This document shows, piece after piece, positions 26,683-56,008 of a stretch of 64,000 bases of DNA. Position 1 is the first letter of the stretch, and each line of letters begins with the position of its first letter. The DNA is taken from the IMG/VR virus record IMGVR_UViG_3300042563_002756; one strand, 5' to 3'. The notes beneath the pieces were generated by a model. It did no database searches, was not told the DNA's origin, and was given only the letters and a program-made list of their open reading frames with translations. The position numbers were made by a program, and so were the translations under genes. The DNA is from a virus.

Positions 26683-26686
26683 ACAT

Positions 26687-27912: not shown

Positions 27913-27924
27913 AAATTCACCTTT

Positions 27925-28656: not shown

Positions 28657-28668
28657 TTTTATCCTTAA

Positions 28669-29367: not shown

Positions 29368-29388
29368 TTATTCTCCGAGTTATTGTCG

Positions 29389-29398
29389 TGGATGACTT
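29389..29398 (-). promoter_or_regulatory. TATAATATAC promoter-like motif upstream of folE
   Basis: member of the recurrent TATAATATA(T)AC family. Confidence 0.4.
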
Positions 29399-29416
29399 GT
29401 ATATTATAATACATTA

Positions 29417-31240: not shown

Positions 31241-31398
31241 ATTTCACCTTGTGATATATTTAGTTATCACTATCTGCTTTTCCTCAGTATTGTAGCTTAG
31301 TATTGTTTAGGGATACGGTCTAATAATTATTAACGGCATAAATTTTCCTTAATATATAGTAGCATTAAATACAATGCAGTACATTTATAGAGGACACT

Positions 31399-32310
31399 AT
31401 GCGATTTATTTTTTTTACAATTTTAATTTTTATCACTTCTATAGCTAATTCTACAGAACTAATTTGGATAAACTCACCTTATAGTGCAGGTCACAGCGGG
31501 CACAATTCTTTAGAAAAAGTACTTACAAAAGCTAACTCATCTCAACAAGACTATATTTTTAAAATTCAAATAAAACCTGGCGGCCAGGGAATAGTTGCAT
31601 TAAAAGAAACGGATATAAATCCGTCGTCTGCTCTAGCAATTGTACATGCTGCATTTGTTGACAATGTTGAGAAAAATTTAATTAAAAGAAATGATTATGT
31701 TGCTATCCACGGTATGGGAGATGCATGTTGGGCTGTTGTATCGTCAAACGGAATACAATCTGTTGGTGTTTCGAGTCTGCAACACACGTCCGAAATCGTA
31801 GTCGGAACAGTGGGAATTGGAAATGCTACTCATCTTACAGCATTAGAAATTGGTAGAAAATATAATATTCCAGTTAGATTAGTTCCATTTAAATCAAACT
31901 TCGATGCATTTGTCAATCTTGCAGGAAATAATGGAGTTAATTTTACTATAGAACGACTATCCACAGTTCAAAATTTTAAACAAAAGAATTCGAATATTAA
32001 AATTTTAGGACTTAGTTGTACGACAAGATCTCTCTACGAACCATCTATAAAAACTTTATCTGAACAGGGTATAAATGTTCCGTCAGTGTTTAATGTGATT
32101 GTTTCGAATAGACAAATGAGCGAAGCAAAACGAAAAACTATAGGAAGAATTTTAGACAAATCTACTAAAATAGTAGGCAATGATGAGATAATGAAACTTA
32201 GTGATATGAGAAGTCCAGTGTTTGACTCAATTAATGCTGAAGATTTTTTTAATGATAGGATTAATTCTATTTCAAATATTAGAAAACGCCATTCTCAGGC
32301 AATACAATAA
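31399..32310 (+). CDS. TctC/Bug-family periplasmic solute-binding protein-like, divergent (signal peptide)
   Basis: signal peptide; blocks NSPYSAGHSGHNSL, IKPGGQGIVA, VGTVGIGNATHLTALEI, RLVPFKSNFDAFVNL align to TctC conserved blocks. Confidence 0.55.
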   Translation: MRFIFFTILIFITSIANSTELIWINSPYSAGHSGHNSLEKVLTKANSSQQDYIFKIQIKPGGQGIVALKETDINPSSALAIVHAAFVDNVEKNLIKRNDYVAIHGMGDACWAVVSSNGIQSVGVSSLQHTSEIVVGTVGIGNATHLTALEIGRKYNIPVRLVPFKSNFDAFVNLAGNNGVNFTIERLSTVQNFKQKNSNIKILGLSCTTRSLYEPSIKTLSEQGINVPSVFNVIVSNRQMSEAKRKTIGRILDKSTKIVGNDEIMKLSDMRSPVFDSINAEDFFNDRINSISNIRKRHSQAIQ

Positions 32311-32317
32311 CCCTCTT

Positions 32318-32692
32318 TTAAAGTATGTCTGATATGTTCCAATTACCTTCGGGCAGAATAATTTCTTGTACAGTTCCGTCTTCGCTTGATATTTCAATAA
32401 TTTTTGCACCTGCGGTAATGCCTACTAAAGCATTATACTCGTCTCGTATGATCCAAAATGGATCCATTTCCGTATCGTGATCGTATTTGTGAAATTCCTC
32501 TAAATTTTCCCATTCGGCATAATAATTTAAAGTCAATTGGTCTTCACTCACATTATGCTCCCATTTAGTGATCTTTTCTTCTCCAATGTAATAATGCCAA
32601 CGAGTTAACCACTCATCGTCTGGCTGCATTACTTCATAATGCCAGAAAATTTCTGGCATTGGCCTATTAAATACTCTTTTAAAAATTATCAT
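32318..32692 (-). CDS. hypothetical protein (124 aa)
   Basis: ORF. Confidence 0.4.
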   Translation of the reverse strand: MIIFKRVFNRPMPEIFWHYEVMQPDDEWLTRWHYYIGEEKITKWEHNVSEDQLTLNYYAEWENLEEFHKYDHDTEMDPFWIIRDEYNALVGITAGAKIIEISSEDGTVQEIILPEGNWNISDIL

Positions 32693-32728
32693 AAATTCTC
32701 CTAGAAACGGTAGTAATCAATTTTATTT

Positions 32729-33709
32729 ATGCTAAATATGAGTGGTATAAAGGAGATTGATATGACCGCCAAACTAGTTAGATGGGTGCTTGCACACGAA
32801 CCTATTGAAATTTTTATTAGAGCTGCTGAAAAATTTGCTGAGATAGTAGAAGAAAGAGCTCCAGGAAGATTAAAAATTGAAGTATTAATGCTTAGTGAAT
32901 ATGCTGAAAAATATCAAAACGGTAAAAAAATAACCAAGCATGACTTACTTGATTTGATGGATAAAGATGAAATTGAAATGAGTCAAATGTATACCTACGT
33001 CTTGAGTAAGTTTAACAAAGACCTAAATGCATTGGACATGCCATTTTTATTCAACGATCACGATCATGCAGCTAGAGTATTTGAAGGACCTATTGGTGAT
33101 CAACTATTAAACGGTTATTCTAAAACTAACAGTAATATCAAAGGTTTGGCATTTACCTATAGTGGAGGATATAAGAATCTCCCGTTTAATAAAAAGATTA
33201 CTTCGTTAAGTGACTTAAAAGGTGCTAAGGTTAGAGTATCTAACAGTCCTGTATGCTTTGATACATTTAAAGCACTAGGGGCAGATCCTATTGTAATGGA
33301 TGTTGAAGAAATTACCCCTGCAATAAAAGATGGTAGAATTGATGCAGGTGAAAGCTCTTGGCCTAGAATTTACGGTTGCGATCAAAACACAGTTGCTAAA
33401 AGTATTTTTAACACAGGTCACAGTCTGTTATTAACTAATATTATTATCAACACTAAATTCTTTAATAGTTTAGATTACGAGATGCAGAATCTATTAAAGG
33501 AAGCAGCAGTAGAAGCTGGCCGATTCGAAAGAAAAATCAGTGTAGATGATGTTAGTCCTACAATTGATAAAGCACGAGCAGACGGAATCGAAGTAGTTGA
33601 TTTATCTCAGAAAGATCTAGAAACGTTTAAAGAGTTATCAAAAGAAATTTATTCAAAGTACGAAAATTTCTTCAGTAAAGGCTTGTTAGACAATATTAAG
33701 AAACACTAA
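32729..33709 (+). CDS. DctP-family TRAP-type solute-binding protein homolog lacking a signal peptide
   Basis: MPFLFNDHDHAARVFEGPIGDQLL, KGLAFTYSGGYKNL, LKGAKVRVSNSPVCFDTFKALGADPIVMDV match DctP blocks; no N-terminal signal sequence. Confidence 0.7.
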   Translation: MLNMSGIKEIDMTAKLVRWVLAHEPIEIFIRAAEKFAEIVEERAPGRLKIEVLMLSEYAEKYQNGKKITKHDLLDLMDKDEIEMSQMYTYVLSKFNKDLNALDMPFLFNDHDHAARVFEGPIGDQLLNGYSKTNSNIKGLAFTYSGGYKNLPFNKKITSLSDLKGAKVRVSNSPVCFDTFKALGADPIVMDVEEITPAIKDGRIDAGESSWPRIYGCDQNTVAKSIFNTGHSLLLTNIIINTKFFNSLDYEMQNLLKEAAVEAGRFERKISVDDVSPTIDKARADGIEVVDLSQKDLETFKELSKEIYSKYENFFSKGLLDNIKKH

Positions 33710-35013
33710 ACCCAATCTATTTTATAGTTCTTCAACCCGGCTTCAAAGTAACATTTGACTTCGGGTTGATCTATTTTTAAAACTCGATAATTTTCGTCCA
33801 GCGCCCATCTAGTATCTAGATCCTTCCAATTTTGTTTGTATACTCGAGCAATAATTACTGGCATAGATGGCATTTTTATTTTATTAAAAAAATAAAAATC
33901 GTTTTTATCAAATTTGTGCAGATAACATTTTGATGCCCACTTGTATGTACTTTGTGTAATGCCTTTAAGTTTTTCCCCGTTATTGTTATTATGCATACTC
34001 CATTGTTGATAATCTAAAGAACCGAACCAGCTTATTATGTCTTCAGTTAATATTGATTTAAAATTATCGTTAAGTCCGTAAACCATTGCAGGACGAACTG
34101 CACCCCAAACAAATCTAGGATTAAACATTGACCACCAGAAGAAATCATGCAAACTGTAAATCGGTACATTGACACTTTTTATATTGTTGTGTATTTTTTC
34201 ATAAAATAAATGTCCAAAATTTGCATCGTGAGAATTTTCAGAACTTATATTTTGTGGAACGTAGGGTATAGTTTTTAAAGAGTTTATGCCTCTCTTTAAT
34301 GCAGTATTAAAATAATATATTAAAATATCTCGATACTCAGAATAGTGCGTGTTTGAATCACTTACCTTGTTGTAAAGATGACTGAGATTTTTTCTACCGG
34401 CAGTCTGCATAGTTTCTTCAAGGTATTTCATTTGAGGATACAGTTTAACCCCCAATTCTGTTCCGTAAATGAAATCACCTAGATCAGCTGATATACAAAA
34501 ATGTTGTTTATTTTTTATAAAATCACTATAAAAATTTTTAGAAGAATCGATAATTTTAAATTTACCTTCGATGTGATTTGTATAGAAATATGGATTTTCT
34601 ATAATAGAATCAGCACTCATTGAAATTATTATTTTTTCTAAATATTCTTGTCCTAGATTTTTTATTAACGAGGCCATTACAACAGTACTGTCTATTCCTC
34701 CAGAATAAAATACAACACAGTTTTTACCTGTTTGATCGATAATATTTTTTATATCCATTGCCCTGCGGTCTGTTACTTCTTCAAATGATAGATTGAACTT
34801 TAAATCAAAAAGTGGAATCTCCCATCCGGACGGTACTACCGTATCCCAAGGATCACTCCATTCTCCGGCTCTTGACAAATATGCAGCGGGTGGATTTGCT
34901 CTTGCAATATTACAATAAAATCTTCCTCCTTCGTCGAGCTCGTCAAAAAATTTAGACAGAGTTGTTGCAACGCTGTAAGAATTAACCGAAGTGCTTTTAT
35001 ATAGTAGTTTCAT
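33706..35013 (-). CDS. PP-loop ATP-pyrophosphatase-family protein, paralog 1 (435 aa)
   Basis: SGGIDS PP-loop (VVFYSGGIDSTVV); paralogous to 35611, 40604, 42724. Confidence 0.65.
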   Translation of the reverse strand: MKLLYKSTSVNSYSVATTLSKFFDELDEGGRFYCNIARANPPAAYLSRAGEWSDPWDTVVPSGWEIPLFDLKFNLSFEEVTDRRAMDIKNIIDQTGKNCVVFYSGGIDSTVVMASLIKNLGQEYLEKIIISMSADSIIENPYFYTNHIEGKFKIIDSSKNFYSDFIKNKQHFCISADLGDFIYGTELGVKLYPQMKYLEETMQTAGRKNLSHLYNKVSDSNTHYSEYRDILIYYFNTALKRGINSLKTIPYVPQNISSENSHDANFGHLFYEKIHNNIKSVNVPIYSLHDFFWWSMFNPRFVWGAVRPAMVYGLNDNFKSILTEDIISWFGSLDYQQWSMHNNNNGEKLKGITQSTYKWASKCYLHKFDKNDFYFFNKIKMPSMPVIIARVYKQNWKDLDTRWALDENYRVLKIDQPEVKCYFEAGLKNYKIDWV

Positions 35014-35599
35014 ATTTTCTTAAATAGTTGTAGAAAGTTTGCCTATATGAATATAATGATGAACTCATATTGGTGTTTTCTTTGAAAATTTTTGATATTT
35101 TTTCTAAAGCCTCTTGCCTAGATGAAGAAAAATATAAAATATGATCTATATGCCAGAGAAAAGGTTTAGCCAGGCCGGTGTCGTCGGATAATGTTGATAG
35201 TGAAATATCATCGCTAACTAAGGATAATATATATTTTTGATCGCTAGAGTTTAAACTTGCATCAGTTAGTCTAGAAGACAACACAACATTATATGCAAAA
35301 TTGCAATAATTCTGATATTCTAAAAAAACATTCTGAGGAATATCCGGTGATCGTTCTCGAGTATCAAAAAGTTGATCTTCGATATGTTTTATTCGAGGAA
35401 TTGGTTTATCAAGCATTGCAATACTAGGATCTTTTATACCCCATGTGCTGCAATTATCATTATTGATACTGTTATTATTAAATTCAAATAAAGACAATAA
35501 AAATTTGGATGAAAGAATTTTACCAGTTTGTAAAGATATCCATCTGTCGTCTTTAACGAGTAGAAATCTTTCTAAGTTGTTTGAGTATATACCGATCAT
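34997..35599 (-). CDS. hypothetical protein (200 aa)
   Basis: ORF in island operon. Confidence 0.4.
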   Translation of the reverse strand: MIGIYSNNLERFLLVKDDRWISLQTGKILSSKFLLSLFEFNNNSINNDNCSTWGIKDPSIAMLDKPIPRIKHIEDQLFDTRERSPDIPQNVFLEYQNYCNFAYNVVLSSRLTDASLNSSDQKYILSLVSDDISLSTLSDDTGLAKPFLWHIDHILYFSSSRQEALEKISKIFKENTNMSSSLYSYRQTFYNYLRKYETTI

Positions 35600-35610
35600 C
35601 GCAATATTTA

Positions 35611-36495
35611 TTATAGTAAGTTTTTAGGTATTCTAAGTGTGGTTCCTATATAAGGGCTCCAATTAGCACTAGCTGTTTTTTGTAGGTGGTCCATGATTTT
35701 TGTTGCAACATCTGGATTTTTACCAAATACAAAGTTATCAGTTTTTTTCTTATAAACAGATTGATGATGATAATCGGGAAATATTATGCTCGACTTTGGT
35801 TCATAAAAAAATTTGAAATTAGTTCTTAATCTTGGATCTTTTAAAATATGATACCAAGTATTAAAATTTCTACTATAAAAATTACCTTCTCCTTGTTTAT
35901 TATAATGAGTTAAACATTGATTGTATAAAATTTCTGAGAGGTGCAAAGGTATGTAGATGTATTGATTATCAAAATCTTTAACCGAATTATTATAAATTGT
36001 AAGATATTTGTTGACATTATTTTTTTCTATATCCCCTTCTCCCATTATGATATAAAACTCTTTTGGTATAAATTTAGTTAGTATTGCACCTACCACATAT
36101 CCCGGAAACATAACAGGACAAATTTGAAATATTTCGTCGATAATATAATCAAAGATGTCATTAACTGTGATTTCGAAAATGTTAAGTTTTGTGTTGTGGT
36201 ACTGAGAAATTAATTTTGCTCCTTCGAGCATATTGTCATTTATATTTCGAATATGGAGGAAAAAATATTCGCAAGGAACTTTTAGTTTATATAAAGAATT
36301 AGCAATTAATTCACTATCTATACCCGAAAGGCACAATCCTATTTGATTGATGTTTTTTAATTTAGCATCATTATATAAGTCTGTAACTGATAAATCAATA
36401 GCCTCGAGGTAGTTGTTTGTAATAATTGGATCAAACTCGTTAACTGTATAAGTAAATTGACACGTTAATTTATTAAAATTAAAATTTCGTTTCAT
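35611..36495 (-). CDS. PP-loop-like paralog 2 with degenerate motif (294 aa)
   Basis: LCLSGIDSELI (SG-DS with one Gly lost); same fold family as neighbours. Confidence 0.5.
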   Translation of the reverse strand: MKRNFNFNKLTCQFTYTVNEFDPIITNNYLEAIDLSVTDLYNDAKLKNINQIGLCLSGIDSELIANSLYKLKVPCEYFFLHIRNINDNMLEGAKLISQYHNTKLNIFEITVNDIFDYIIDEIFQICPVMFPGYVVGAILTKFIPKEFYIIMGEGDIEKNNVNKYLTIYNNSVKDFDNQYIYIPLHLSEILYNQCLTHYNKQGEGNFYSRNFNTWYHILKDPRLRTNFKFFYEPKSSIIFPDYHHQSVYKKKTDNFVFGKNPDVATKIMDHLQKTASANWSPYIGTTLRIPKNLL

Positions 36496-36745
36496 AATAA
36501 TTAATAACTCTTTGTTTTTTTTCTTTTAATTCTGCACTAATTTCATTTTCTAATAAAATTTCCAATCCCCTTGAGCTCAACGTAAGATGGTATTCGATAA
36601 TATTTTTATTGTTAACAACTTTAAAAAACTCACTGGTTTCTTTTATTTCAATTATAATGTTGTCGTCTGAGACAGTTATATATTCATTTATTATATAACA
36701 GATAAGACCAGTCGCCTTATCTATAATTGCAAATTTTTTAATCAT
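36479..36745 (-). CDS. hypothetical small protein (88 aa)
   Basis: ORF. Confidence 0.35.
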   Translation of the reverse strand: MIKKFAIIDKATGLICYIINEYITVSDDNIIIEIKETSEFFKVVNNKNIIEYHLTLSSRGLEILLENEISAELKEKKQRVINYYETKF

Positions 36746-36756
36746 ATAAATACCTT

Positions 36757-38091
36757 ATGTATAATTTGTGTTCTGTAATTAACTATCAAAATTTAAATAA
36801 ACTTGCAATATCTAACGGAGCACAGTCATTAACATATAAAGAATTAAACAGTTTAGTTGGAAACTATGCCCACTATCTTAGTAGTATCGATCTAAAAAAT
36901 AAAAAAATATTTCTTGATATATCTAACCCTGTTGAATTTATTGCTGCTTATCTAGGAGTGTTAAAGTCAGGTAATATCAGTGTCCTTGTTAATAATAATT
37001 TATCAAAAGAAAAGAAAAAGCAAGTACTTTCTGATTTAGATATAGACTATAGGTTGTCTTCTAAAATATTTCAAGAGATTAACGATATACCAATTGTTGA
37101 AAGAAATGGTAGAGATCCATGCACTATTTTATTCACTTCTGGATCAATCAAATCTAAAGGAGTAATTGTACCCCATAATTTAAAAATTAATGTAGAAAGA
37201 ACTGTAAGTCCTCGAGGAACTAAAAGTTTAAAATTAATCAGTAGTCCCTTGTACCATTTAAACGGTTTATTTAATTGTTTATTAAGTTTAGCAAATGGCG
37301 GAACATTATTTACTGCTGAGAAATTTAGTATAAATTCATTTGAGACGTTTATAGATTCATATGCCATTAATAATATCGTGTGTGTTCCGACGGTAATTAA
37401 TATGTTAAACAATAATAAAATGTTTGATACTGTAAAATTAGTTCGTCTGACAAGTGCTCCGACAAGTTATTCCACTTTTCAAAAAGCTAAAAGAATATTT
37501 CCAAATGCGACTATTAGACTAGGCTACGGTCTTACTGAAGTTGGTTCTAGTTTATTTGGAAATCATCCGTTTTTACCTACTCCGGAAACAAGTGTTGGAT
37601 ATCCGTTTGCTGATATAGAATATAGATTGATCAATAATATACTTGAAATAAATAGCCCTTCTATGTTAATTGGATACACTGATTTAGATAAATCTAAAAT
37701 TACTAAAGATGGTTTTTTTGTTACTAATGATCTATTTGAAATAGATAAAGATGGATTTTATTATTTCATAGGCCGATTTGATGATATGTTTGCATGTGGC
37801 GGAGTAAAAATTTATCCGTCAGAAATAGAAAAAATTTTAGAACAATATGAAGGTGTTGAATCTGCAACGGTAATAAAGGTACAAGACAAAATAAAAGGAT
37901 TTAAACCGTATGCTTTTGTAAAATCTCAACATAATATTTCTCAATTAGATTTAGAAAATTATGTTAGAAGCAAGATGCCGTTTAGTCATTGCCCGAGAAA
38001 AATTTGGGTTGTAAAAGATTTTCCTTATAATAGTATAGGAAAAATTGACAAATTGTCTTTAACAAAAGAAGCTGAAAAATATATATGTTAA
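36757..38091 (+). CDS. ANL-superfamily adenylate-forming enzyme (acyl-CoA ligase / stand-alone adenylation domain)
   Basis: TSGSIKSKG (A3), YGLTE (A5), GGVKIYPSEIE, terminal IGKIDK lysine (A10). Confidence 0.75.
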   Translation: MYNLCSVINYQNLNKLAISNGAQSLTYKELNSLVGNYAHYLSSIDLKNKKIFLDISNPVEFIAAYLGVLKSGNISVLVNNNLSKEKKKQVLSDLDIDYRLSSKIFQEINDIPIVERNGRDPCTILFTSGSIKSKGVIVPHNLKINVERTVSPRGTKSLKLISSPLYHLNGLFNCLLSLANGGTLFTAEKFSINSFETFIDSYAINNIVCVPTVINMLNNNKMFDTVKLVRLTSAPTSYSTFQKAKRIFPNATIRLGYGLTEVGSSLFGNHPFLPTPETSVGYPFADIEYRLINNILEINSPSMLIGYTDLDKSKITKDGFFVTNDLFEIDKDGFYYFIGRFDDMFACGGVKIYPSEIEKILEQYEGVESATVIKVQDKIKGFKPYAFVKSQHNISQLDLENYVRSKMPFSHCPRKIWVVKDFPYNSIGKIDKLSLTKEAEKYIC

Positions 38092-38822
38092 AAAATAAAA
38101 TTGTTTTGATTGCTGGCGGAATGGGACAAATAGGATTAGAAGCAGCATCTAGATTATCAAATTTAGGTGCTATTGTTATTTGTTTAACTAGACAGGACCC
38201 TACTGAAGCAACTAATATTTTAAAAAATATTTCAATAAACTGCATAGCAGTTCAGTGCGATATTAAAAATACAACTATGATAAAAGATGTTGTACAGCAT
38301 ATTAGTAAAGAATATGGAAGAATAGATGTATTGATCAACAGTGCAGGTGTTACACATGATATTAAACTAGGAAATATTGAATCGATTACAGATGAAATAC
38401 TAGATAATATTATTGATACAAATCTAAAAGGATCTTTTAAATTAATAAGAGAATGTAAAGAACTTTTAGATAACTCAAGTAGTCCGCTAATTATTAATGT
38501 GTCATCGACATCAAGTTTACGGGCAAGTCGAAGTAACCCGATTTATGCTGCTTCGAAATCAGGTATTAACATACTGACCCAAACATTAGCATTACACCTT
38601 TCTCCGAGTATTAGGGTTGTTGGAATTGCGCCCGGCTACTTAGAAAAGGCTGTAGCAGGCGCTAATAAACCCAGTGAATATAATGACAAAATAGCACAGT
38701 CGTTACCCTTAAGACGAATTGGCACAGGAAAAGATGTAGTTGATGTGATAGAAAGTATTATTACCAAGATGACATGGATGACTGGAAATACTATTGTATT
38801 GGACGGAGGAATGACCATTTGA
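38085..38822 (+). CDS. short-chain dehydrogenase/reductase (SDR)
   Basis: IAGGMGQIG cofactor motif, NSAG, YAASK catalytic Tyr/Lys. Confidence 0.8.
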   Translation: MLKNKIVLIAGGMGQIGLEAASRLSNLGAIVICLTRQDPTEATNILKNISINCIAVQCDIKNTTMIKDVVQHISKEYGRIDVLINSAGVTHDIKLGNIESITDEILDNIIDTNLKGSFKLIRECKELLDNSSSPLIINVSSTSSLRASRSNPIYAASKSGINILTQTLALHLSPSIRVVGIAPGYLEKAVAGANKPSEYNDKIAQSLPLRRIGTGKDVVDVIESIITKMTWMTGNTIVLDGGMTI

Positions 38823-39691
38823 AAACTATAATAACATGTGCAATAACCGGAGCGTCGACTAGAAAAGATCAAACTCCTTATCTGCCAATTACTCCTGTAG
38901 AAATTGCCACCTCGGCGTTAGGGGCAGCATCAGCCGGTGCTGCTATTGTCCATTTACATGTAAGAGATCCTGAGACAGGCAATCCTAGCATGAGTTTTAA
39001 ATTATATGAAGAAGTTGTTTGTTTAATTAAAGAAAAAAATGACAAAGTTTTAATAAATTTAACAACGGGACCTGGTGCTCAATGGTTTCCTACTCCTGGT
39101 AATTTAGCGCAAGGAAGTCATCATAGCCTATTGCTCGGAGCCGCTGAGAGAGTGAATCATGTTGTAAAATTACGTCCCGATTTATGTAGTATAGACTTTA
39201 ATACAATGAATCAATCTAGCAACGGTGTTAGAATCAATCATAAACTAATTATAAAAGAAATGATTAAACTGATTCAAGATGCAGGCGTAAAACCTGAGCT
39301 AGAATTATTTGACAGTGGTGATTTAGTGTTGGCCAACGAATTTTATCAAGAAGGAATAATTGAAAAAAACCCATTTTGGCAATTTGCTATGGGGATCAAA
39401 TATGGTTGGGCTGCATCAACTAATACATTGATGTATGCACAACGAGAGTTGCCTTCGAGCGCAGTATGGAGTGCATTCGGAATAGGAAAAACTGAAATGC
39501 CTATATTGGCTCAAACTTCTATATTAGGTGGGCATGTAAGAGTGGGATTAGAAGATAATATCTATACAAAAAGAGGAAGATTAGCTGAATCAAATGCAGA
39601 GCTAGTTGAAATGGCTGTTAATATTATCGAGTTGCTAGGAGGAAATGTTGCAACTCCGGAAGACGCTAGATCTCTATTATCAATTATTTAA
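38819..39691 (+). CDS. BKACE/Kce-family beta-keto acid cleavage enzyme (DUF849); probable TTG start overlapping SDR stop (ORF open from 38774)
   Basis: AITGASTRKDQTPYLPITPVEIA...IVHLHVRD and GGHVRVGLEDNIY...LAESNAELV match Kce; TTGA overlap with GGAGGAA RBS. Confidence 0.8.
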   Translation: MKTIITCAITGASTRKDQTPYLPITPVEIATSALGAASAGAAIVHLHVRDPETGNPSMSFKLYEEVVCLIKEKNDKVLINLTTGPGAQWFPTPGNLAQGSHHSLLLGAAERVNHVVKLRPDLCSIDFNTMNQSSNGVRINHKLIIKEMIKLIQDAGVKPELELFDSGDLVLANEFYQEGIIEKNPFWQFAMGIKYGWAASTNTLMYAQRELPSSAVWSAFGIGKTEMPILAQTSILGGHVRVGLEDNIYTKRGRLAESNAELVEMAVNIIELLGGNVATPEDARSLLSII

Positions 39692-40595
39692 TCTTTCCTT
39701 CATCAATCAGATTGTTCTTTATGAGATATTCTAAAGTACTTTTATTAAATTCTTGAATAATTTGTGTATCGTTACCGTATTTGAGATAAGGCGTTATACC
39801 CAATCCTTTGATTCTTTTTTCAAAAGAAGCATCGAACTTATTTCTTATATCAAACAAAATTTTCTCTTTAATTTCAGCTGATAGACTTTTGCTAATTACA
39901 AGTCCCATTATATTTGATAGAGGAAATTTTTCTTTGAACTGTGTATCCCATAGAGGAACGTTTTCACTTATAGGGTTAGTGACTATTATTGCATTAAGCC
40001 TAGGATTAGTAAGGTGCTGTCTATGAACTGCATACTGGACCCACATACAGTTAATTTGATTACCTAGTAAGTCAAATAACGGTTTCCCTCCTCCAGCTGG
40101 ATATTGAACAATTATATGATTGTTTTTTGGAAGTTTATTTATAATCAATTGAGTAGTATAATGATCACCGGTTCCGACTCCAACTGAACCGAAGCTTAGA
40201 GATTTTTTATTATTCTGTAGATCTGTGAAATTCTTTATTCCTGTTTCGGCATTGCAAAACAATACCATAGGCATTACTCCGATCGATGCAATAATTTCTA
40301 GGTCTTCGGTTACAATTTTTTTAACATCGGGGTTCATTTTGTCAATTGACACAAAAGACATAATGGATGCAAATACCATAACGGCATTTTCTTTATGAAC
40401 GTGCCTAAGTGCAATCTGCGATGATCCGCCTGGCTTGTGTACCACAACGTAAGCAGGATCATTAAACGTTTCTTGAACTGACCTAGCAATTAAACTACCC
40501 GGACCGCCAGGTCCAAACGGAGCTACAATTTCTATTGTGGTTGCATAAAGGACTGAGTGAAACAGCATTATAGCAAGTAGTAATATTTTCTTCAT
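39684..40595 (-). CDS. TctC/Bug-family periplasmic solute-binding protein (signal peptide)
   Basis: IVAPFGPGGPGSLIARSV, VVVHKPGGSSQIA, FGSVGVGTGDHYTTQL, QYPAGGGKPLFDLLGNQINCMWVQ match TctC blocks. Confidence 0.75.
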   Translation of the reverse strand: MKKILLLAIMLFHSVLYATTIEIVAPFGPGGPGSLIARSVQETFNDPAYVVVHKPGGSSQIALRHVHKENAVMVFASIMSFVSIDKMNPDVKKIVTEDLEIIASIGVMPMVLFCNAETGIKNFTDLQNNKKSLSFGSVGVGTGDHYTTQLIINKLPKNNHIIVQYPAGGGKPLFDLLGNQINCMWVQYAVHRQHLTNPRLNAIIVTNPISENVPLWDTQFKEKFPLSNIMGLVISKSLSAEIKEKILFDIRNKFDASFEKRIKGLGITPYLKYGNDTQIIQEFNKSTLEYLIKNNLIDEGKIK

Positions 40596-40603
40596 AATCT
40601 TGT

Positions 40604-41857
40604 TTAGTCTAATAGCCAGTCCCCACCAAAGGGAAATGAATGTGTTGGTTTAAAATTAACAGCAGCATTATTCTTGTCGAAAGCTAAATATTCTCCATCT
40701 ATCCCATTTAGGTAACTCTTTACATAATAATTCCATTTGTCCTGTATTGGTTTAGTTTCATGATGGTCCCAGAATACCCAATCTTGCGGTTTTCCAACTT
40801 TTACCTGAGTTAGTATTTCGATATCTTTTTTTATTTGAAATCGATTAGTATTCCAAAATGGATACAGAACTTTTTTACATATTTCGTCTTTTAAGTACTG
40901 CGGAGTTTGATTTAGCAGCATCAGTGTTTTTTCTTTTGATAGATTATTAAACTTTGAAAGAGGATACAATAGCATTCTATCTTCTTTATTAGTTTTATAA
41001 TGGAGATAAACTTGATATGCCATTTCCACAGCTAGTAATGGGTAGTCTGGTGTTATATAAAAATACTCAGTACCGGTACCGCCAAAAGTCAAGTTGTGTT
41101 GCAGAGGCCAATCAACAAATCTCGAAACTACTTTATTAGGTTCTAATTCAGAAATATACAAGTTGGGTTTATCTGCTCCTTCGATAATGCCAACATTTAC
41201 ACCTTTGTCGAATAGAGTTTTTTCAAATTTAGAAAAATGCTGCATTCTATAAAAACTTATAGGGCTTAAATAGTGATTTTGTTTTTGAAACTGTGTATCA
41301 TCAATTCTTTTTTCTGTTGTAATATTTTCAAGCCAGTCGTCGACATAGATTTTTATGTCTGGATAATTTTTTGAAATCCAATCTAAGTCGGGTTTTATTA
41401 CATAGTCCCATTCACTTAATTCGTTCTTAGGACTGAAATTTAAATTGTTAGGGGTGTATAGATTTTTTGATTTAGCAGAAACTGGCCAATTAACATATAT
41501 TGCATCTAATTTTATATTGTTCTTTAAAAAAGTCATCAATACATTGTGACTGTCTGAACCGCCTGAATATTTTAAAATTAAATATTCATACTTGTCTCTT
41601 AATTGCATTGCACGATCTTTATATAAAACATTCAACGGAATTTGTCCACACAACGAATAGTTGAAGTTTTTCCATATGTCTGAATAATATCGAAATGCAA
41701 TACCTACATTAGTGTTTAATTTTTTTAATCGAGTAGCTTCGAGTAATGCCTCTACTTTGTTTAAGTAATCTTTGTAAAAATTATGATTACTTTTGTTATA
41801 TACTCTATAGCATCCAAAAGAGTTAAGTGATAGATCAGTAATTGTAGTATTAGTCAT
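40604..41857 (-). CDS. PP-loop ATP-pyrophosphatase-family protein, paralog 3 (417 aa)
   Basis: KYSGGSDSHNVL PP-loop. Confidence 0.65.
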   Translation of the reverse strand: MTNTTITDLSLNSFGCYRVYNKSNHNFYKDYLNKVEALLEATRLKKLNTNVGIAFRYYSDIWKNFNYSLCGQIPLNVLYKDRAMQLRDKYEYLILKYSGGSDSHNVLMTFLKNNIKLDAIYVNWPVSAKSKNLYTPNNLNFSPKNELSEWDYVIKPDLDWISKNYPDIKIYVDDWLENITTEKRIDDTQFQKQNHYLSPISFYRMQHFSKFEKTLFDKGVNVGIIEGADKPNLYISELEPNKVVSRFVDWPLQHNLTFGGTGTEYFYITPDYPLLAVEMAYQVYLHYKTNKEDRMLLYPLSKFNNLSKEKTLMLLNQTPQYLKDEICKKVLYPFWNTNRFQIKKDIEILTQVKVGKPQDWVFWDHHETKPIQDKWNYYVKSYLNGIDGEYLAFDKNNAAVNFKPTHSFPFGGDWLLD

Positions 41858-42700
41858 TTAGTTTAAATTAGAGCCTAACCAGTTGCCATAATGCACACAA
41901 TGATCCTCTAGTCTATTAGAAGATCGTGTGAGCGGATAGTGCGGTCCTTTCTGAGATTCAATCGCAGCAACATCTTCTCGAAAAACAGGTTCTATATAGT
42001 GTTCAAATTTTTCTCTTTGTCCTACATTGGTAGTTTTATCGAAATAATATTGTGTGATCCAATTAAAACCAAATTCACTTTCTGTATTGTGCGGGGTAGT
42101 ATAATTTAATGCTACACACCCCGGGCTCCATTCTATAAACGTATATGGATAAACAAATAACCACCAGCCTGTTGAACAGGTTTGCAAAATCCATCCGTCA
42201 CCGTCATACATTTCAATATCATTTAAATTTGTAATTTCTGCTAATTCAGGATGTACTACATCTTCACCTTGTCTAATATGTAGTAGGTCTGCCTGTATTT
42301 CCATCATCCAAAGCCAACTACCCTTTTCACTTGTTCCGTGTCTAGAATGGCTATATTCTAGATTAGTCTCTGTTGCAAGATCGTTGACCCATTGGTGATC
42401 TGGTTCTAAAAAGTTTTTAAATATTAATCCACTTTTTCCAGTTTGTGCAGATCCACATGCAATTTTTCGATCGTTGTTTATAGGATCTCCGTCCTTATTC
42501 CATTCAAATCCATGAAACTTGCATACTATATTTTCAACTATTGAACCCGGCTCTGCTAGCGGATACATACGATGGGGGCAATGGCGTCGAAAAAGATTTA
42601 TTTTATCTTGATTTTTATTAAGGATATAATCTGGTACAACAAAATTGCCAGCATCGAGGGCAGATGTATGGGCTAAAATTTTTGGTGGATTGTTGAACAT
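41858..42700 (-). CDS. Rieske [2Fe-2S] domain oxygenase-like protein (280 aa)
   Basis: CPHR ... CKFHG (CxH-x16-CxxH) Rieske signature; His-containing C-terminal domain. Confidence 0.65.
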   Translation of the reverse strand: MFNNPPKILAHTSALDAGNFVVPDYILNKNQDKINLFRRHCPHRMYPLAEPGSIVENIVCKFHGFEWNKDGDPINNDRKIACGSAQTGKSGLIFKNFLEPDHQWVNDLATETNLEYSHSRHGTSEKGSWLWMMEIQADLLHIRQGEDVVHPELAEITNLNDIEMYDGDGWILQTCSTGWWLFVYPYTFIEWSPGCVALNYTTPHNTESEFGFNWITQYYFDKTTNVGQREKFEHYIEPVFREDVAAIESQKGPHYPLTRSSNRLEDHCVHYGNWLGSNLN

Positions 42701-42723
42701 GTATTTTCTTTTTCTACAAATAT

Positions 42724-43641
42724 TTATTGTAATAACAAACGGTTTAATTCTTCTTCAGAATATTTAATTGTAGTATCGTCGATGTCTCTCATATATTTGT
42801 TATAAAAATCATTAATAAATTGAGGTCTATGAGCTACAGGATTATCTAATCCCTCGTATCCTACTAGTTTAGGTTTATATTCCATTGTAGGCCAAATGTA
42901 TTTGTGTATAGCAACTCTACTGCTGATATTACTAATCTTGCCCAAGTGCTCATCATTTAGTAGTTGCCTAACTAATGGAAGTTCTTTATAAGACATAATT
43001 ATTTCAGGAGTATATTCGTACCAATCACCTATAATAGTTCTCCCTATATTTTTAGCGTAGGTAGATACAGAATATCCATCCTCGTGTAATTGAAATAGCC
43101 AACGAGACTTTTTACTGTAATCATTTTCTAATTCACGACGCCAGTAAGGTTCGCCGTCGCAGAAGATAGGTATGTTGTCTAAGTAGTCAATAAATTTAAG
43201 TCTAGGCAGTCTCCCTGCCATTGGTATCAGTGTACTATTAAACAATTCCAATGCTTCTTCTTTAAAGAATTTTTCTACGTTAAAATCGACGATATTGTAA
43301 GGTATGTTTAGTTCGTTGCATAATTTTACAGCATTGTTTACGTCGCGAATATTGTAGTTATTTTCTAATCTAAAGATAAAAGTATTATGTTTAATACCAG
43401 CACTCTTAAATGTTCTGACAACTATTTCACTGTCTGTACCTCCACTAAGGCATACGTCAAACGGTTCTTTATAAGAATCTCGCATGATACGTGCATTATT
43501 AATGAGTGCGTCTTTATAAGAAGTTAACGGAGTACTGATCTTGTTGTTAAAATTTATAGATATAATACTATGTTTATCTTTTTTAACACCGTATTCAATA
43601 CCGTCAAAATTATAACTCATCCAGTTATTAAATCTTTGCAT
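42724..43641 (-). CDS. PP-loop ATP-pyrophosphatase-family protein, paralog 4 (305 aa)
   Basis: CLSGGTDSEIVV PP-loop. Confidence 0.65.
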   Translation of the reverse strand: MQRFNNWMSYNFDGIEYGVKKDKHSIISINFNNKISTPLTSYKDALINNARIMRDSYKEPFDVCLSGGTDSEIVVRTFKSAGIKHNTFIFRLENNYNIRDVNNAVKLCNELNIPYNIVDFNVEKFFKEEALELFNSTLIPMAGRLPRLKFIDYLDNIPIFCDGEPYWRRELENDYSKKSRWLFQLHEDGYSVSTYAKNIGRTIIGDWYEYTPEIIMSYKELPLVRQLLNDEHLGKISNISSRVAIHKYIWPTMEYKPKLVGYEGLDNPVAHRPQFINDFYNKYMRDIDDTTIKYSEEELNRLLLQ

Positions 43642-43649: not shown

Positions 43650-45128
43650 CTAATCTGATTTGTGTTGTAAGTTAAAAGTCTTTGATAGTTCTAACATATC
43701 ATTTACGTATATTTCGCATTCTTTCTTAATCAACGAGGGAATATTATATTTAGATATTATTTCTTTTCTGGATAAATTCAATAATTCCTTATCTGGAATT
43801 CCGAATCGTCTTAGGTAATTATAAGTAAATCCACCGAATTTAAATTTTGAAAACTTGTTAGATTTTTCTGTTATATTGTGAGCAATATCAAAGCACTGTG
43901 AGTAACTTAACCCTGTATTTTTATTATACCATCCTTCATCTGTAATTTCATAACCATACTTATCATGATTAATATCAAATTCAGAGTGGAAGTTTTTATT
44001 AGTTTTACTAAGAGGAGAAATACCTAAGGGATTTACATACCAGCTATCTAAATAATTTTTGTCTGAGAATAAAAATTCTTCAAGTTCGGTAAAAGTATCA
44101 AGCGTATCATGTGGTAATCCTAATATAAATCCTGAATTTAATATTACGTCTTTGAATTCATTTTGTTTTAATTCTTTTATAAATTCTAATTGATCGTAGG
44201 GATTTAAACCTTTACCAATAGATTTAGCAGATTGGTGATTAATACTTTCAATACCAAACATTGCCGATGTGAGCCCGGACTCTTTTAAGTACGGGATAGA
44301 CTCTGGAAATCGCATTAGTAAGTCAATCCTCAAATAACTAGAAAAATGAATTTTAAATTTAAGTTTAGAAAATACGTTATCATGTAAATATTTTAACTTG
44401 TCTAAACTATCATTATAGGTATCATCACTAAAAGTATAATAAGTTATTCCAAAATTTTCATAATTATAATTTAACTCATCTAATAAAACATTTCCGTGTT
44501 TTATCCACTCACCTTTTGTTTTTCCGTTTAATGGGAATGCACAAAACTTACATTTAAAAATGCAACCTCTGCTTATCTCAATTGGCAATGCATCTAAATT
44601 ACTAATCAGATCATTTTTAGTGTACGTTATTTGACTTGATGAAAAATCTTTAAATTCACTACCTTGAATTAATGTAGTACGAAAAGAAATATTAGATGAT
44701 TTGTTTGTCAAACACCATTCAGTGAATTCTATAATTTCTTTGTCACTATAGCTCTTGAATATCTTTACTCCATATTGTTCTAATGGAAAATATCTAGACC
44801 CACCTGATATTATTTTAACTTTGGGATTTAAATTCTTGATAAATTGTATAAAGTTAACAAACAGTTCATCGTTTGTAGTAGATTTAAACGTTAATCCAAG
44901 AAGTTTATCAAAAAATGTAGTACTAAATCCTACCCACAATGTGCTTGATGATATTGAATTTTTTAAGACTTCTTTTAGCTGTTCTAGTTTATTCACATAT
45001 TCAAATGCACTTAGATCAATGCACACAGTAGAATAATTATTCTTTCTCAGTTCGGATGATATTCTAAATACGCCGCCGTGCTTTTGTAGTGGCATTGGGG
45101 TACTACCGTATAATAAAATACAATTCAT
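43650..45128 (-). CDS. radical SAM enzyme with N-terminal B12-binding-like domain, paralog 1
   Basis: CxxxCxxC (RGCIFKCKFCAF); N-terminal Rossmann-like region; 492 aa. Confidence 0.7.
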   Translation of the reverse strand: MNCILLYGSTPMPLQKHGGVFRISSELRKNNYSTVCIDLSAFEYVNKLEQLKEVLKNSISSSTLWVGFSTTFFDKLLGLTFKSTTNDELFVNFIQFIKNLNPKVKIISGGSRYFPLEQYGVKIFKSYSDKEIIEFTEWCLTNKSSNISFRTTLIQGSEFKDFSSSQITYTKNDLISNLDALPIEISRGCIFKCKFCAFPLNGKTKGEWIKHGNVLLDELNYNYENFGITYYTFSDDTYNDSLDKLKYLHDNVFSKLKFKIHFSSYLRIDLLMRFPESIPYLKESGLTSAMFGIESINHQSAKSIGKGLNPYDQLEFIKELKQNEFKDVILNSGFILGLPHDTLDTFTELEEFLFSDKNYLDSWYVNPLGISPLSKTNKNFHSEFDINHDKYGYEITDEGWYNKNTGLSYSQCFDIAHNITEKSNKFSKFKFGGFTYNYLRRFGIPDKELLNLSRKEIISKYNIPSLIKKECEIYVNDMLELSKTFNLQHKSD

Positions 45129-45898
45129 GTTTTGATTACCTTAATAATTAGTCCAGCAATATCAAGTTCCCACCATTTCTTTTTGAACATATAGTCTTTA
45201 GGGTATCGATGATGATTATTGTGCCACGATTCCCCCCAACTAGGAATAGCCCATATCCAGTTGTTTGTGCTTTGATCGTTTATATTATAACTACGATATC
45301 CACCTAACCAATCAGGTTTATGACCTACGTAATTAACTACATTACTCATAATTCCAGTAATCAGCGACGGTGCCCAAAGTAAAAATATCATTAAATAAAA
45401 TCCACCAATCATAAACAATATCATGCTATACACAGCAATAATTGCAAAATAATAACGGTGTAAAAACTGTTGAAATTTATCCGTTACTATATTTCTCATA
45501 CGCCATTTAGTATTACTATCAATTTCATTTACGTAATCAAGTGTAAAGATTTTCAAGCCTTTATATAATGGACTGTGAGGATCACTTGGTTTGTCACTTT
45601 TTAAGTGATGATTAATATGAATAGCGACCCATGCTAATGGACTTCCTGTTCCTGCAAAACAGCCCATCACTGATAAAATTTTAGTTAATAAAGGATATGT
45701 AGTATAGCTATTATGAGTAAGGCTTCTATGGTATGTGACGACAATACCCAAACAACCGTATAAAAAATATCCTAACAATATAAGCAATACAGCGTTAGTC
45801 GTTAGACCATACCAAGTTATTCCAGAAATGGTACCTAGTAATGATAAAATCATGAATAGTTGGGAACCGCGTGTGCTAGATGATAGATATGTTGTCAT
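45125..45898 (-). CDS. acyl-CoA/acyl-lipid Delta9 fatty-acid desaturase-family membrane protein, paralog 1
   Basis: His boxes HRSLTH, HINHH...DPH, HNNHH with SCD-like spacing; multiple TM segments. Confidence 0.75.
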   Translation of the reverse strand: MTTYLSSSTRGSQLFMILSLLGTISGITWYGLTTNAVLLILLGYFLYGCLGIVVTYHRSLTHNSYTTYPLLTKILSVMGCFAGTGSPLAWVAIHINHHLKSDKPSDPHSPLYKGLKIFTLDYVNEIDSNTKWRMRNIVTDKFQQFLHRYYFAIIAVYSMILFMIGGFYLMIFLLWAPSLITGIMSNVVNYVGHKPDWLGGYRSYNINDQSTNNWIWAIPSWGESWHNNHHRYPKDYMFKKKWWELDIAGLIIKVIKT

Positions 45899-46639: not shown

Positions 46640-47446
46640 TCATGATTTTTTTCTAATAAAAATAATAAAATTTCCTAATGAGTCAACTTCCCACCATTTT
46701 ATTTTAGTGGTAAAATTTCCAGGATTTTTATGATGATTATTATGCCAGGCATCCCCGAGTATAAAGGGCCATAACCAGATGTTATTAGTACTAGTATCTC
46801 GAGTTTCGAAGTTTCTATGTCCGTGCATATGAGCAAAATAGTTAAAACAGTTTTGACTTAGCTGTACTAACATAACAGGTAATACCCATGTAAAATAAAT
46901 TAAATCGATATTGATAAAACTTAAAAAAACCAACCATGTAAATATTATAGCAAAATACCATTTATTAATAAAGAGATGTTCTTTGGTCATTAGCTCTTTT
47001 ACTAAAAATACTTTCATCTTACCACTATGAGTTTCGATGTGTTTAAATCCAAATAATTTAAATCCTAAGTTATGAGGACTATGCGGGTCCTCATGTTGAT
47101 CTGAGTAGGCATGATGTAATCGATGCACATATACCCAACCTAAGGGGCTTCCTCGACCAGTAAGTATTGCAATCAACGTACAGATCCATTTTAGCAGGTT
47201 ACTGTTAAATTCAAAAGATTTATGACTATAGTACCTATGCAACGTAAGACTTACACCTATAATACTATAGAGATAAAAACTTATAGTTGTTATTAGAATA
47301 TTTTGAAAAGTAAAATCAAAATAAAACAATCCAATAATTGCACATAGGCTTGTGGCTAGTTGAACTTTGGTAATTGTGGTTGCACTTGCTGAAAACATAT
47401 TGTATTTATGAACTAAATATTTTAAGGACACAAATATTCCTTGCAC
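46640..47446 (-). CDS. acyl-CoA/acyl-lipid Delta9 fatty-acid desaturase-family membrane protein, paralog 2
   Basis: HRYYSH, HRLHHAYSDQHEDPH, HNNHH His boxes. Confidence 0.75.
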   Translation of the reverse strand: MQGIFVSLKYLVHKYNMFSASATTITKVQLATSLCAIIGLFYFDFTFQNILITTISFYLYSIIGVSLTLHRYYSHKSFEFNSNLLKWICTLIAILTGRGSPLGWVYVHRLHHAYSDQHEDPHSPHNLGFKLFGFKHIETHSGKMKVFLVKELMTKEHLFINKWYFAIIFTWLVFLSFINIDLIYFTWVLPVMLVQLSQNCFNYFAHMHGHRNFETRDTSTNNIWLWPFILGDAWHNNHHKNPGNFTTKIKWWEVDSLGNFIIFIRKKS

Positions 47447-53138: not shown

Positions 53139-53142
53139 AGAG

Positions 53143-56007: not shown

Positions 56008-56008
56008 T

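Follow-up and report, generated by a model that had tools for sequence, protein, structure and literature searches.

Enzymes of the BKACE (DUF849) family are known from a few bacterial catabolic routes and from one antibiotic pathway. We analyzed a BKACE gene carried, together with genes for an ANL-superfamily adenylating enzyme (ANL) and a short-chain dehydrogenase/reductase (SDR), on a 64,000-nucleotide stretch of viral DNA (IMG/VR record IMGVR_UViG_3300042563_002756; its full length is termed the window here) that belongs to a T4-like phage. The most likely common substrate of the three enzymes is a carboxylic acid with a beta-hydroxy or beta-keto group. One described system that invites comparison is the deoxyribonate pathway, in which an SDR oxidises a beta-hydroxy acid, a BKACE cleaves the beta-keto acid with acetyl-coenzyme A (acetyl-CoA), and the released acetoacetate must be activated as a CoA ester (Price et al., bioRxiv 10.1101/205583). 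The phage trio shares this two-step SDR plus BKACE logic; however, the dehydrogenase of the deoxyribonate pathway used NAD+, and its operon contains a lactonase and MFS transporters but no ANL, AsnB-like genes or binding proteins. Similarly, Kce of lysine fermentation and CdhC of carnitine degradation belong to the same Pfam family of TIM-barrel Zn enzymes and have the same His-His-Glu site and catalytic Glu, whereas their active-site Tyr is a Phe here, the score of the phage enzyme against the Kce model is 245 bits for a cut-off of 382, and their pathway-specific neighbours are not present. In canonical enzymes this Tyr contacts the CoA sulfur (Kce Y145, PdKce Y173 and ObcA Y322; bioRxiv 10.64898/2026.01.15.699783). 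A further member, BsfD, serves flavophos biosynthesis in Burkholderia (structures 9ZSC, 9ZSH, 9ZSN and 9ZSV); it acetylates C2 of a beta-keto acid, and the product decarboxylates (bioRxiv 10.64898/2026.01.15.699783).

The genes of the trio and the short signals beside them are as follows.

36757..38091, plus strand: ANL-superfamily adenylating enzyme, acyl-CoA-ligase-like, 444 aa (Pfam AMP-binding 7.8e-34, AMP-binding_C 2.5e-09)
38085..38822, plus strand: classical SDR, 245 aa, with an NADP(H)-type signature (adh_short 1.8e-41, adh_short_C2 1.4e-42)
38819..39691, plus strand: BKACE/DUF849-family Zn enzyme, 290 aa, TTG start, Phe-type clade (Pfam BKACE 9.4e-90)
38805..38811, plus strand: GGAGGAA, Shine-Dalgarno-like, with a 7-nt gap to the BKACE TTG
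36745..36752, plus strand: TATAAATA, the consensus of T4 late promoters, 4 nt ahead of the ANL start codon ATG (no more than a lead)

The ANL and SDR genes overlap by 7 nt (ATGTTAA), and the SDR and BKACE genes by 4 nt (TTGA, comprising the TTG at 38819-38821 and the TGA at 38820-38822). Compared with a 91%-identical relative (locus L001), the ratios of nonsynonymous to synonymous substitution rates (dN/dS) were 0.13 for ANL, 0.12 for SDR and 0.11 for BKACE; these low values argue that all three are real genes rather than chance open reading frames (ORFs). An 88-codon ORF on the minus strand begins 11 nt ahead of the ANL start.

To place the trio among its relatives, partners were counted by iterated profile search within 10 kb on either side of BKACE in 38 loci (individual loci carry L numbers below). 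BKACE homologues number in the thousands, and the closest of them, at 92% identity, lie on four metagenomic contigs with the same gene order. An IMG/VR scan with an alignment of the subfamily found 31 viral contigs of up to 345 kb whose BKACEs are 51-66% identical, exact-protein look-ups added contigs of 144-373 kb, and a scan of genome contigs gave, among the matches listed, mostly Burkholderiales proteins of ~50% identity. ANL is present in 30 of the 38 loci and SDR in 32, nearly always in the order ANL-SDR-BKACE. Furthermore, ANL and SDR form a single 721-aa polypeptide in three loci from different samples (L093 7830-9995, L094 467-2632 and L095 3426-5591), with BKACE following the fusion at an ATGA junction. 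This natural fusion is strong evidence that ANL and SDR act in the same pathway. The suggestion, made from the sequence alone, that the three overlapping genes are one coupled unit is thus borne out by the overlaps, by an order retained in about 30 of 38 loci and by the fusions.

The surroundings of the trio are more variable. In L088 and L089 a one-strand array reads ANL-SDR-BKACE-orphan-PP-loop-TctC-DctP, the order in L007 is BKACE-DctP-ANL-SDR-orphan-PP-loop, and in the window the same genes are divided into two divergent blocks about position 36750. In two cell-like contigs, L005 and L118, the same operon occurs with the ATGA junction, and ANL and SDR are separated by one more gene, of 189 aa; CsgG/CsgF, FecR and a CHASE2 cyclase are among the neighbours. 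Because this operon is the same, the module appears to be common to cells and phages. Based on these observations we regard the trio, with moderate confidence, as the conserved and translationally coupled centre of a mobile cluster of accessory genes, which is found in T4-like and jumbo phages and in some uncultured cells.

The start of the BKACE gene deserved separate attention, since the ORF that contains it (38774-39691, plus strand) opens with an in-frame ATG at 38774 that would lengthen the protein by 15 residues. The sequence-only reading placed the start at the TTG, behind a GGAGGAA ribosome-binding site and across the SDR stop, and all of these elements were found where it had put them, as were the motifs AITGA, HLHVRD and GGHVRVGLEDN in the translation. 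Homology begins at TTG 38819. The codon aligned to it is ATG in 18 related loci and TTG in 6, an NTGA overlap with the upstream SDR stop is seen in 26 loci, and BKACE homologues are 288-290 aa long. In the cell-like contig L005 the junction reads ...GCATGAAAACC, which gives ATGA at the same residue as the TTG of the window. Between ATG 38774 and the TTG, the window and L001 differ by 2 substitutions in 45 nt, a small sample, and both are silent in the SDR frame and amino-acid-changing in the frame of the extension. Start-codon alignment, overlap, protein length and substitution pattern together make a start at TTG 38819 well supported by comparative sequence data. The GGAGGAA itself falls inside the codons for the C-terminal LDGGM of the SDR, where D-G-G is conserved, and related loci have GAYGGNGG at this position. 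As GGAGG is part of the codons for the conserved Asp-Gly-Gly, it would have a double role, as coding sequence and as ribosome-binding site.

Transcription signals were less informative. The sequence TATAAATA before ANL is kept in L001, L002 and L004 and is not conserved in more distant loci. It occurs in 3 copies in the 64-kb window, against 8.0 expected from shuffles; the further copies are on the minus strand at 7037-7044 and 40136-40143, one of them ~22 nt before the start of the ORF at 6758-7015. A scan for sigma-70 promoters and terminators found sites no more numerous than in shuffled sequence.

The BKACE assignment is secure at the family level. The protein scores 301.1 bits against Pfam PF05853 (cut-off 24.8), and the match, which begins at residue 2 counted from the TTG start, takes in positions 1-273 of the 274-position profile. 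Its identity is 47% to BsfD (9ZSC; 1.2e-79, the best match among solved structures), 42% to RaKce (3C6C) and ~40% to PdKce. The Zn ligands H45, H47 and E245, whose conservation was one of the features on which the earlier reading depended, are intact; they correspond to H48, H50 and E247 of BsfD and are invariant in 25 members of the subfamily. E162 of the E-x-E-x-Y/F strand and R241 and D246 of the R...ED motif are identical in BsfD, and E162 also matches E171 of PdKce; residues of this type are catalytic in Kce. K224, Y249 and R252 occupy the positions of the BsfD CoA contacts R226, Y251 and K254 and are the same or conservatively replaced. Residues invariant in the subfamily also include R138, H141, W187 and W197. 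With Zn ligands, catalytic Glu and CoA contacts conserved, binding of zinc, of a beta-keto acid and of (acetyl-)CoA is to be expected. The canonical active-site Tyr, by contrast, is replaced: F164 stands at the position of PdKce Tyr173, as F166 does in BsfD, and a Phe is found there in 120 of the 120 top homologues and in 105 of 106 locus-encoded proteins. For this reason canonical cleavage chemistry cannot be assumed.

Two groups of Phe-type relatives help to frame these features. BsfD resembles the window enzyme in its Zn ligands, in the Phe at the Tyr position and in an alignment that runs without gaps through the extended loop after strand beta3. It differs in that its phosphonate-positioning Arg91 is Gln88 in the window enzyme; there are no phosphonate genes in the window, and no ANL or SDR partner is reported for BsfD. 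RaKce and the BKACEs of Burkholderiales SDR-BKACE pairs are ~42-54% identical to the window enzyme, are Phe-type and have an SDR immediately upstream. In contrast to the phage loci, however, the Burkholderiales pairs are found in cellular, high-GC genomes, have intradiol-dioxygenase-like, MDR-type reductase, cupin and Bug/TctC-type neighbours (as read from ORF translations), and have no ANL, AsnB-like or DctP-like partner.

The two other enzymes of the trio were inspected in the same way. The SDR has the motifs GGMGQIG, NSAG and S...YAASK, all of them conserved across 29 orthologues, so that the NAD(P)-binding capacity expected of it from its Gly-rich, NSAG and S-Y-K motifs stands. The conserved Arg behind strand beta2 (LTRQD here; relatives have VRR or VRK) is, in SDRs, a mark of NADP(H) preference. 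The protein matches the FabG and acetoacetyl-CoA reductase NCBIfam models below their cut-offs. Both Pfam domains of the ANL score above their gathering thresholds, and the protein has the core motifs TSGSIKSKGV, GYGLTE, GRFDDMF.CGG and a C-terminal GK, with the A7 motif reading TND instead of TGD. Its best relatives in the PDB are MenE, FadD13 and malonyl- and oxalyl-CoA ligases (E ~1e-27 or weaker); it falls below every NCBIfam cut-off, the best subfamily being long-chain-fatty-acid-CoA ligase at 2.7e-49, and its identity to the ANL proteins encoded by related operons is 36-39%.

Beyond the trio, the partners found most often within 10 kb were members of the PP-loop superfamily (24 of 38 loci), DctP (15) and an orphan protein of ~200-270 aa (10), followed by desaturase-like proteins (8), TctC (7), B12-binding radical-SAM proteins (7) and Rieske proteins (4). 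The recurrent partners of the trio are AsnB-like synthetases of the carboxylate-adenylating, amide-forming kind, the orphan 200-aa protein, cytoplasmic DctP-like proteins and secreted TctC-like proteins. In the window these and the remaining neighbours are encoded at the following positions.

31399..32310, plus strand: secreted TctC-like binding protein with the N-terminal hydrophobic leader MRFIFFTILIFITSIANS
32729..33709, plus strand: DctP-family binding protein without signal peptide (DctP Pfam 7.6e-56, 190 bits against a cut-off of 23.4)
33706..35013, minus strand: AsnB-synthetase-domain-like PP-loop enzyme, 435 aa, the commonest partner of the trio
34997..35599, minus strand: orphan 200-aa protein; 10 of the 38 loci have a homologue, which in L088 and L089 immediately follows BKACE
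35611..36495, minus strand: PP-loop paralogue, 294 aa, with the degenerate motif LSGIDS
39684..40595, minus strand: second secreted TctC-like protein (TctC Pfam 1.8e-08) with the leader MKKILLLAIMLFHSVLYA
40604..41857, minus strand: PP-loop paralogue, 417 aa, YSGGSDS
41858..42700, minus strand: Rieske [2Fe-2S] protein, 280 aa (Rieske domain 1.2e-08)
42724..43641, minus strand: PP-loop paralogue, 305 aa, LSGGTDS
43650-45128 and 48085-49554: B12-binding radical-SAM proteins, class-B-like
45125-45898 and 46640-47446: FA_desaturase-family membrane proteins with HRxxxH, HxxHH and HNNHH boxes

The 435-aa enzyme combines the PP-loop motif SGGxDS with a synthetase fold like those of AsnB and beta-lactam synthetase. 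It has no N-terminal Ntn glutaminase domain, with only ~75 residues before the PP-loop domain, and no match in Pfam. Four divergent PP-loop paralogues occur in this one island. The 294-aa paralogue joins the superfamily of the 435-aa enzyme by iterated profile search, and its similarity in hhalign is weak and confined to the motif region; likewise, the 417-aa paralogue matches that family in hhalign only around the PP-loop and belongs to the same superfamily by iterated search. Homologues of the latter (26-28% identity) adjoin the module in L104, L107, L113 and L120. The 305-aa paralogue has weak matches to QueC, to MnmA and to the N-terminal part of NAD synthase, and a homologue stands beside a Rieske homologue also in L089, L119 and L120. 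A 7-deazaguanine pathway, which FolE and the QueC-like matches might have indicated, was considered and rejected: QueD, QueE and DpdA were not found beside FolE, and the main PP-loop protein folds like AsnB, not like QueC. The orphan 200-aa protein has no match in Pfam, PHROG or PDB profiles.

For the DctP homologue the family assignment is firm: TRAP_S1 matches at 1.3e-40, above its cut-off, NF037995 at 139.5 against 50, and the protein also matches the PHROG family phrog_31178. All phage orthologues start at most ~15 residues ahead of the first conserved strand (KWVLAHEP). Leaderless proteins are encoded in the window and in L007, L088, L089, L092, L102 and L114, whereas the Variovorax homologues have a leader. 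The carboxylate-binding Arg context, LKGAKVRV, is retained, and no matches to the membrane components DctQ and DctM were found in the island or among the neighbours of the phage DctP proteins. As the phage copies are without a signal peptide, this protein is a cytoplasmic acid-binding protein and not a normal transporter subunit; it gives the impression of a binding protein taken over from a transporter for use in the cytoplasm. The two TctC homologues, on the other hand, both carry leaders, and the host is therefore probably a diderm bacterium. The first has an L001 orthologue with a weak TctC Pfam match, and homologues by the module that are 42-45% identical in L088, L089, L101 and L114 and 44% identical in L120. 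The second is convergent with BKACE, the 3′ ends overlapping by 8 nt. The proposal that solute-binding proteins accompany the trio thus stands in that the homologues are present and the TctC proteins have leaders, but the DctP protein, lacking a signal peptide, is not an ordinary periplasmic uptake component.

A pathway role had also been proposed for the Rieske protein, and this was not supported: only 4 of 38 loci have a homologue nearby, and in the nearest relatives the gene has the opposite orientation. It is located two genes from BKACE, on the opposite strand. Homologues within 10 kb of BKACE are confined to the L001 group, L089, L119 and L120; the L119/L120 copy is 21% identical, and in L089 the gene points the same way as ANL and precedes it by two genes, a PP-loop gene standing between them. 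Relative to L001 the gene is inverted in place (window 41858-42734; L001 13085-14029), in that window 42045-42734 aligns to L001 13827-13150 on the opposite strand at 81% and identity drops to ~69% beyond. Inverted repeats flanking the gene were no better than chance. Similarity to PDB entries is restricted to the Rieske domain (SxtT/SxtDIOX, E 0.005), and the gene usually travels with the 305-aa PP-loop paralogue. Judged by gene content, the Rieske gene is an occasional component of the island outside the core module, and the trio plus the Rieske oxygenase is not a self-contained catabolic module.

Other island genes were characterized more briefly. The radical-SAM proteins best match the PhpK, ladderane and HpnJ models, far under their cut-offs (78 bits against 600 for the PhpK P-methyltransferase). 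A phosphonate pathway, to which BsfD and the PhpK-like matches could point, was rejected: translation of the window in all six frames gave no EDKx5NS, the motif of phosphoenolpyruvate mutase; the enzyme lacks Arg91; and the score of the radical-SAM proteins is 78 bits against 600. A desaturase homologue lies two genes upstream of ANL in the cell-like L005 and L118, and the wider island also encodes a GNAT-like protein and glycosyltransferases. The syntenic island of the 144-373 kb contigs (L120 5851-6150, 17226-18680 and 20585-20833; L119 13783-14244) has extra genes, which encode an acyl carrier protein (ACP) with a DSL motif, a carbamoyltransferase, a GNAT and a protein faintly like a phosphopantetheinyl transferase (PPTase-like); homologues of the L120 ACP and PPTase-like genes were not found in the window.

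T4-like phages carry islands of auxiliary metabolic genes, and the setting of the trio can be compared with these. The phage identity of the window is documented by PHROG matches to rIIA (56009-58186, 5e-131), rIIB (54952-56031, 3e-80) and a clamp-loader subunit (2223-3146, 9e-76); UvdE and dCMP deaminase are also encoded, and a 406-aa protein is related only to proteins of PA5oct-like jumbo phages and of T4-like phages that infect Caulobacter or Sinorhizobium. The structural genes and the host-like genes that precede the island include the following.

7053-11650: two large tail-fibre-like proteins with collagen triple-helix repeats, one with an N-terminal Mtd_N domain (major tropism determinant), the other with a C-terminal endosialidase-chaperone domain
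24505-30250: run of host-like genes just upstream of the island
24505-25191: Bax1-I family membrane protein
25477-25848: MazG/PRA-PH-like pyrophosphohydrolase
25906-26739: D-Ala-D-Ala carboxypeptidase
28669-29367: GTP cyclohydrolase I (FolE)
29417-30250: short UDP-glucose-dehydrogenase-like protein

G+C is 24-37% over ~29.4-53 kb, against 44-46% in core genes, and this low-GC surrounding places the trio in a phage accessory island. Like the auxiliary islands of T4-like phages, it is a low-GC, mosaic, hypervariable, host-like block between the structural and rII regions, with FolE, a MazG-like protein, dCMP deaminase and glycosyltransferases beside the module. It differs from them in that BKACE is not among deposited phage records or PHROGs: there was no tblastn match in 50,697 deposited phage records and no PHROG match, and a full-text search of the literature found no description of a phage-encoded BKACE. 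Neither the module nor the structural region has a DNA match among deposited phages. The collinear, 91%-identical block shared with L001 comprises window positions 31338-41869. Taken over window positions 30000-54000, the island is mosaic relative to L001, the glycosyltransferase block at 50822-53299 being at the opposite island end there, and the L001 sequence that was compared is without the radical-SAM genes and the dCMP deaminase gene of the window. In L100 and L101, the sequence immediately upstream of ANL resembles the 3′ end of a tRNA gene (…GGTTCGAGTC…CACCA-like), which suggests that the module may adjoin a tRNA cluster in these two loci.

What the trio does was considered in the light of these comparisons. 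A general statement, that the phage encodes an ANL-SDR-BKACE route for processing an acid through CoA chemistry, has in our estimate about an even chance of being right. In such a route the SDR would interconvert the beta-hydroxy and beta-keto forms, as acid or thioester, with NADP(H); BKACE would subject the beta-keto acid to Claisen-type chemistry that depends on acetyl-CoA and canonically yields acetoacetate and a shortened acyl-CoA; and ANL would convert an acid of this pathway, either the incoming one or the released acetoacetate, into its CoA thioester. An organic acid, captured or taken up, would then feed the acetyl-CoA pool or an amide-forming tailoring step. If cleavage is the outcome, the TctC proteins could raise uptake of the acid and ANL could activate the acetoacetate. 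The sequences show the structure of the genes and the start codon, the conservation, fusion and purifying selection, catalytic and cofactor-binding residues that are intact, the Tyr-to-Phe change and the partner genes; we infer from them what class of substrate is used, what each enzyme does and which way the pathway runs. As to direction, cleavage or salvage is plausible though short of an even chance, while biosynthesis and something else altogether are each a lesser but real possibility. Oxidation followed by cleavage is favoured by precedent, because of the deoxyribonate SDR plus BKACE pathway and the Burkholderiales clusters, which are catabolic in appearance. A biosynthetic direction is favoured by the AsnB-like partners, the NADP(H) signature, the kinship to BsfD, the cytoplasmic DctP, and the ACP, PPTase-like, carbamoyltransferase and GNAT genes of L119/L120.

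Several points count against the proposed acid-processing scheme. BKACE and all tested members of its clade are below every named equivalog, so that no substrate is assignable: the scores are 211 bits against 430 for 3,5-dioxohexanoate:acetyl-CoA acetone transferase and 174 against 350 for 3-oxoadipate:acetyl-CoA acetyltransferase, in addition to the Kce score given above, and the BKACEs of L005, Variovorax and Paraburkholderia and RaKce are likewise under every named cut-off. The canonical active-site Tyr is a Phe throughout the clade, and BsfD, the only characterised Phe-type member, does no retro-Claisen cleavage (bioRxiv 10.64898/2026.01.15.699783). The cleavage or salvage view leaves the AsnB-like enzymes and the cytoplasmic DctP without a role. 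The role given to ANL is a guess, its closest relatives by sequence appearing generic. Finally, the 38 loci include near-duplicate contigs and represent ~22 independent lineages, and the 'viral' label of IMG/VR does not prove viral origin. The sequence-only expectation that BKACE acts with a dehydrogenase on a beta-keto acid survives in part: the family residues and the pairing with an SDR agree with it, but with Phe in place of Tyr the canonical cleavage is not to be assumed.

A tentative alternative, which we consider possible but not probable, turns the chemistry around and has the Phe-type BKACE act as a C-C bond-forming acyltransferase, with ANL providing the acid or its acyl-CoA, the NADPH-type SDR reducing a ketone and the AsnB-like enzyme amidating a carboxylate. 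Either a BsfD-like C-acylation with decarboxylation would lead to a beta-diketone, or, by reversal of the cleavage, an acyl-CoA and acetoacetate would be joined into an extended beta-keto acid, and the product would be a small molecule or decoration made by the phage. This accords with the closest characterised homologue being BsfD, with which the window enzyme shares Phe166 and the ungapped loop after strand beta3, with an SDR Arg signature typical of NADPH-dependent reductases, and with AsnB-like synthetases as the commonest partners; the island further provides B12-radical-SAM, desaturase-like and GNAT-like proteins and glycosyltransferases, to which L120 adds an ACP, a PPTase-like protein and a carbamoyltransferase. 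Every conserved enzyme would thereby have a role. However, the phosphonate-positioning Arg91 is replaced by Gln, and the window contains neither a phosphoenolpyruvate-mutase motif nor an ACP. Phe166 as the cause of the altered chemistry of BsfD is itself unproven, the F166Y mutant being insoluble (bioRxiv 10.64898/2026.01.15.699783). Moreover, the Burkholderiales Phe-type homologues occur in catabolic-looking contexts, and secreted binding proteins would be unusual in a biosynthetic operon. The stronger form of this proposal, in which the operon is the core of a phage small-molecule pathway and its BKACE forms C-C bonds independently of thiolases and polyketide synthases, we regard as unlikely.

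Tailoring of lipids or fatty acids is more doubtful again. Here ANL would ligate fatty acids, the SDR would serve either as a 3-oxoacyl reductase of the FabG kind or as a 3-hydroxyacyl dehydrogenase, and the substrates of BKACE would be 3-oxo acids of medium or long chain; jointly with the desaturase-like genes, which are of Delta9 type, the three would remodel host lipids during infection. The best NCBIfam subfamily of ANL and the FabG and acetoacetyl-CoA reductase matches of the SDR point this way, as do the desaturase-like genes in 8 of 38 loci (L005 and L118 included), the ACP and PPTase-like genes of L120, and the NetSyn preprint, which ties one BKACE context cluster to fatty-acid biosynthesis. 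On the other hand, these family scores are far under their cut-offs and the names generic, most loci are without desaturases, the ANL is short (444 aa) and MenE-like, and nothing direct points to a hydrophobic substrate.

The sequence-only reading favoured catabolism of an amino or quaternary-amine beta-hydroxy acid, carnitine/betaine-like or lysine-derived, which the SDR would oxidise and BKACE cleave, with the Rieske protein demethylating or oxygenating and the binding proteins importing. We consider this improbable. SDR and BKACE pairing does recur in catabolism, the metal and base residues of BKACE are intact, secreted TctC-like proteins are adjacent, and the Rieske homologue is linked to the module in four lineages, co-directionally in L089. 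Yet a cdh/cnt cluster would comprise an L-carnitine dehydrogenase of the 3HCDH family and a DhcAB CoA-transferase, or a CntA-type Rieske protein with its catalytic domain, and a kce cluster has kamA, kamDE, kdd and kal as neighbours. Among the island ORFs scanned there was no 3HCDH, CoA_trans or CntA-like catalytic domain; no carnitine dehydrogenase of the 3-hydroxyacyl-CoA-dehydrogenase type, DhcAB-type CoA transferase or thioesterase; and no KamA, KamDE, Kdd or Kal. The Kce score is below its cut-off, the canonical Tyr is missing and DctP is leaderless, while the Rieske gene is absent from 34 of 38 loci and its product matches oxygenases over the Rieske domain only. With the cdh/cnt and kce hallmarks not found and BKACE below the named equivalogs, the carnitine/betaine- or lysine-derived substrate was not sustained. 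That the genes are passenger DNA, newly acquired from a cell and functionless in the phage, would fit the low island G+C and its mosaic arrangement, rearranged between close relatives, but is very improbable given purifying selection between phage relatives (dN/dS 0.11-0.13) and the recurrence of the module in many divergent viral contigs with order and junctions conserved.

The enzyme families and the pairing of SDR with BKACE are already known. What is new is that ANL, SDR and BKACE form one operon, with a fusion in some phages, that this operon is spread among large uncultured phages, and that it has a Phe-type BKACE and AsnB-like and leaderless-DctP partners. The cytoplasmic DctP homologue would represent an unusual use of a transporter component. 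Identification of the substrate would give phage biology a new type of auxiliary metabolism or a virus-encoded product, would provide a function for a large BKACE clade that includes the structural-genomics protein 3C6C, and would test whether the Tyr-to-Phe switch marks a change from retro-Claisen cleavage to acyl transfer. If the operon were indeed the core of a small-molecule pathway, a virus-made metabolite, or a decoration of surface, lipid or glycan, would be widespread in large aquatic phages.

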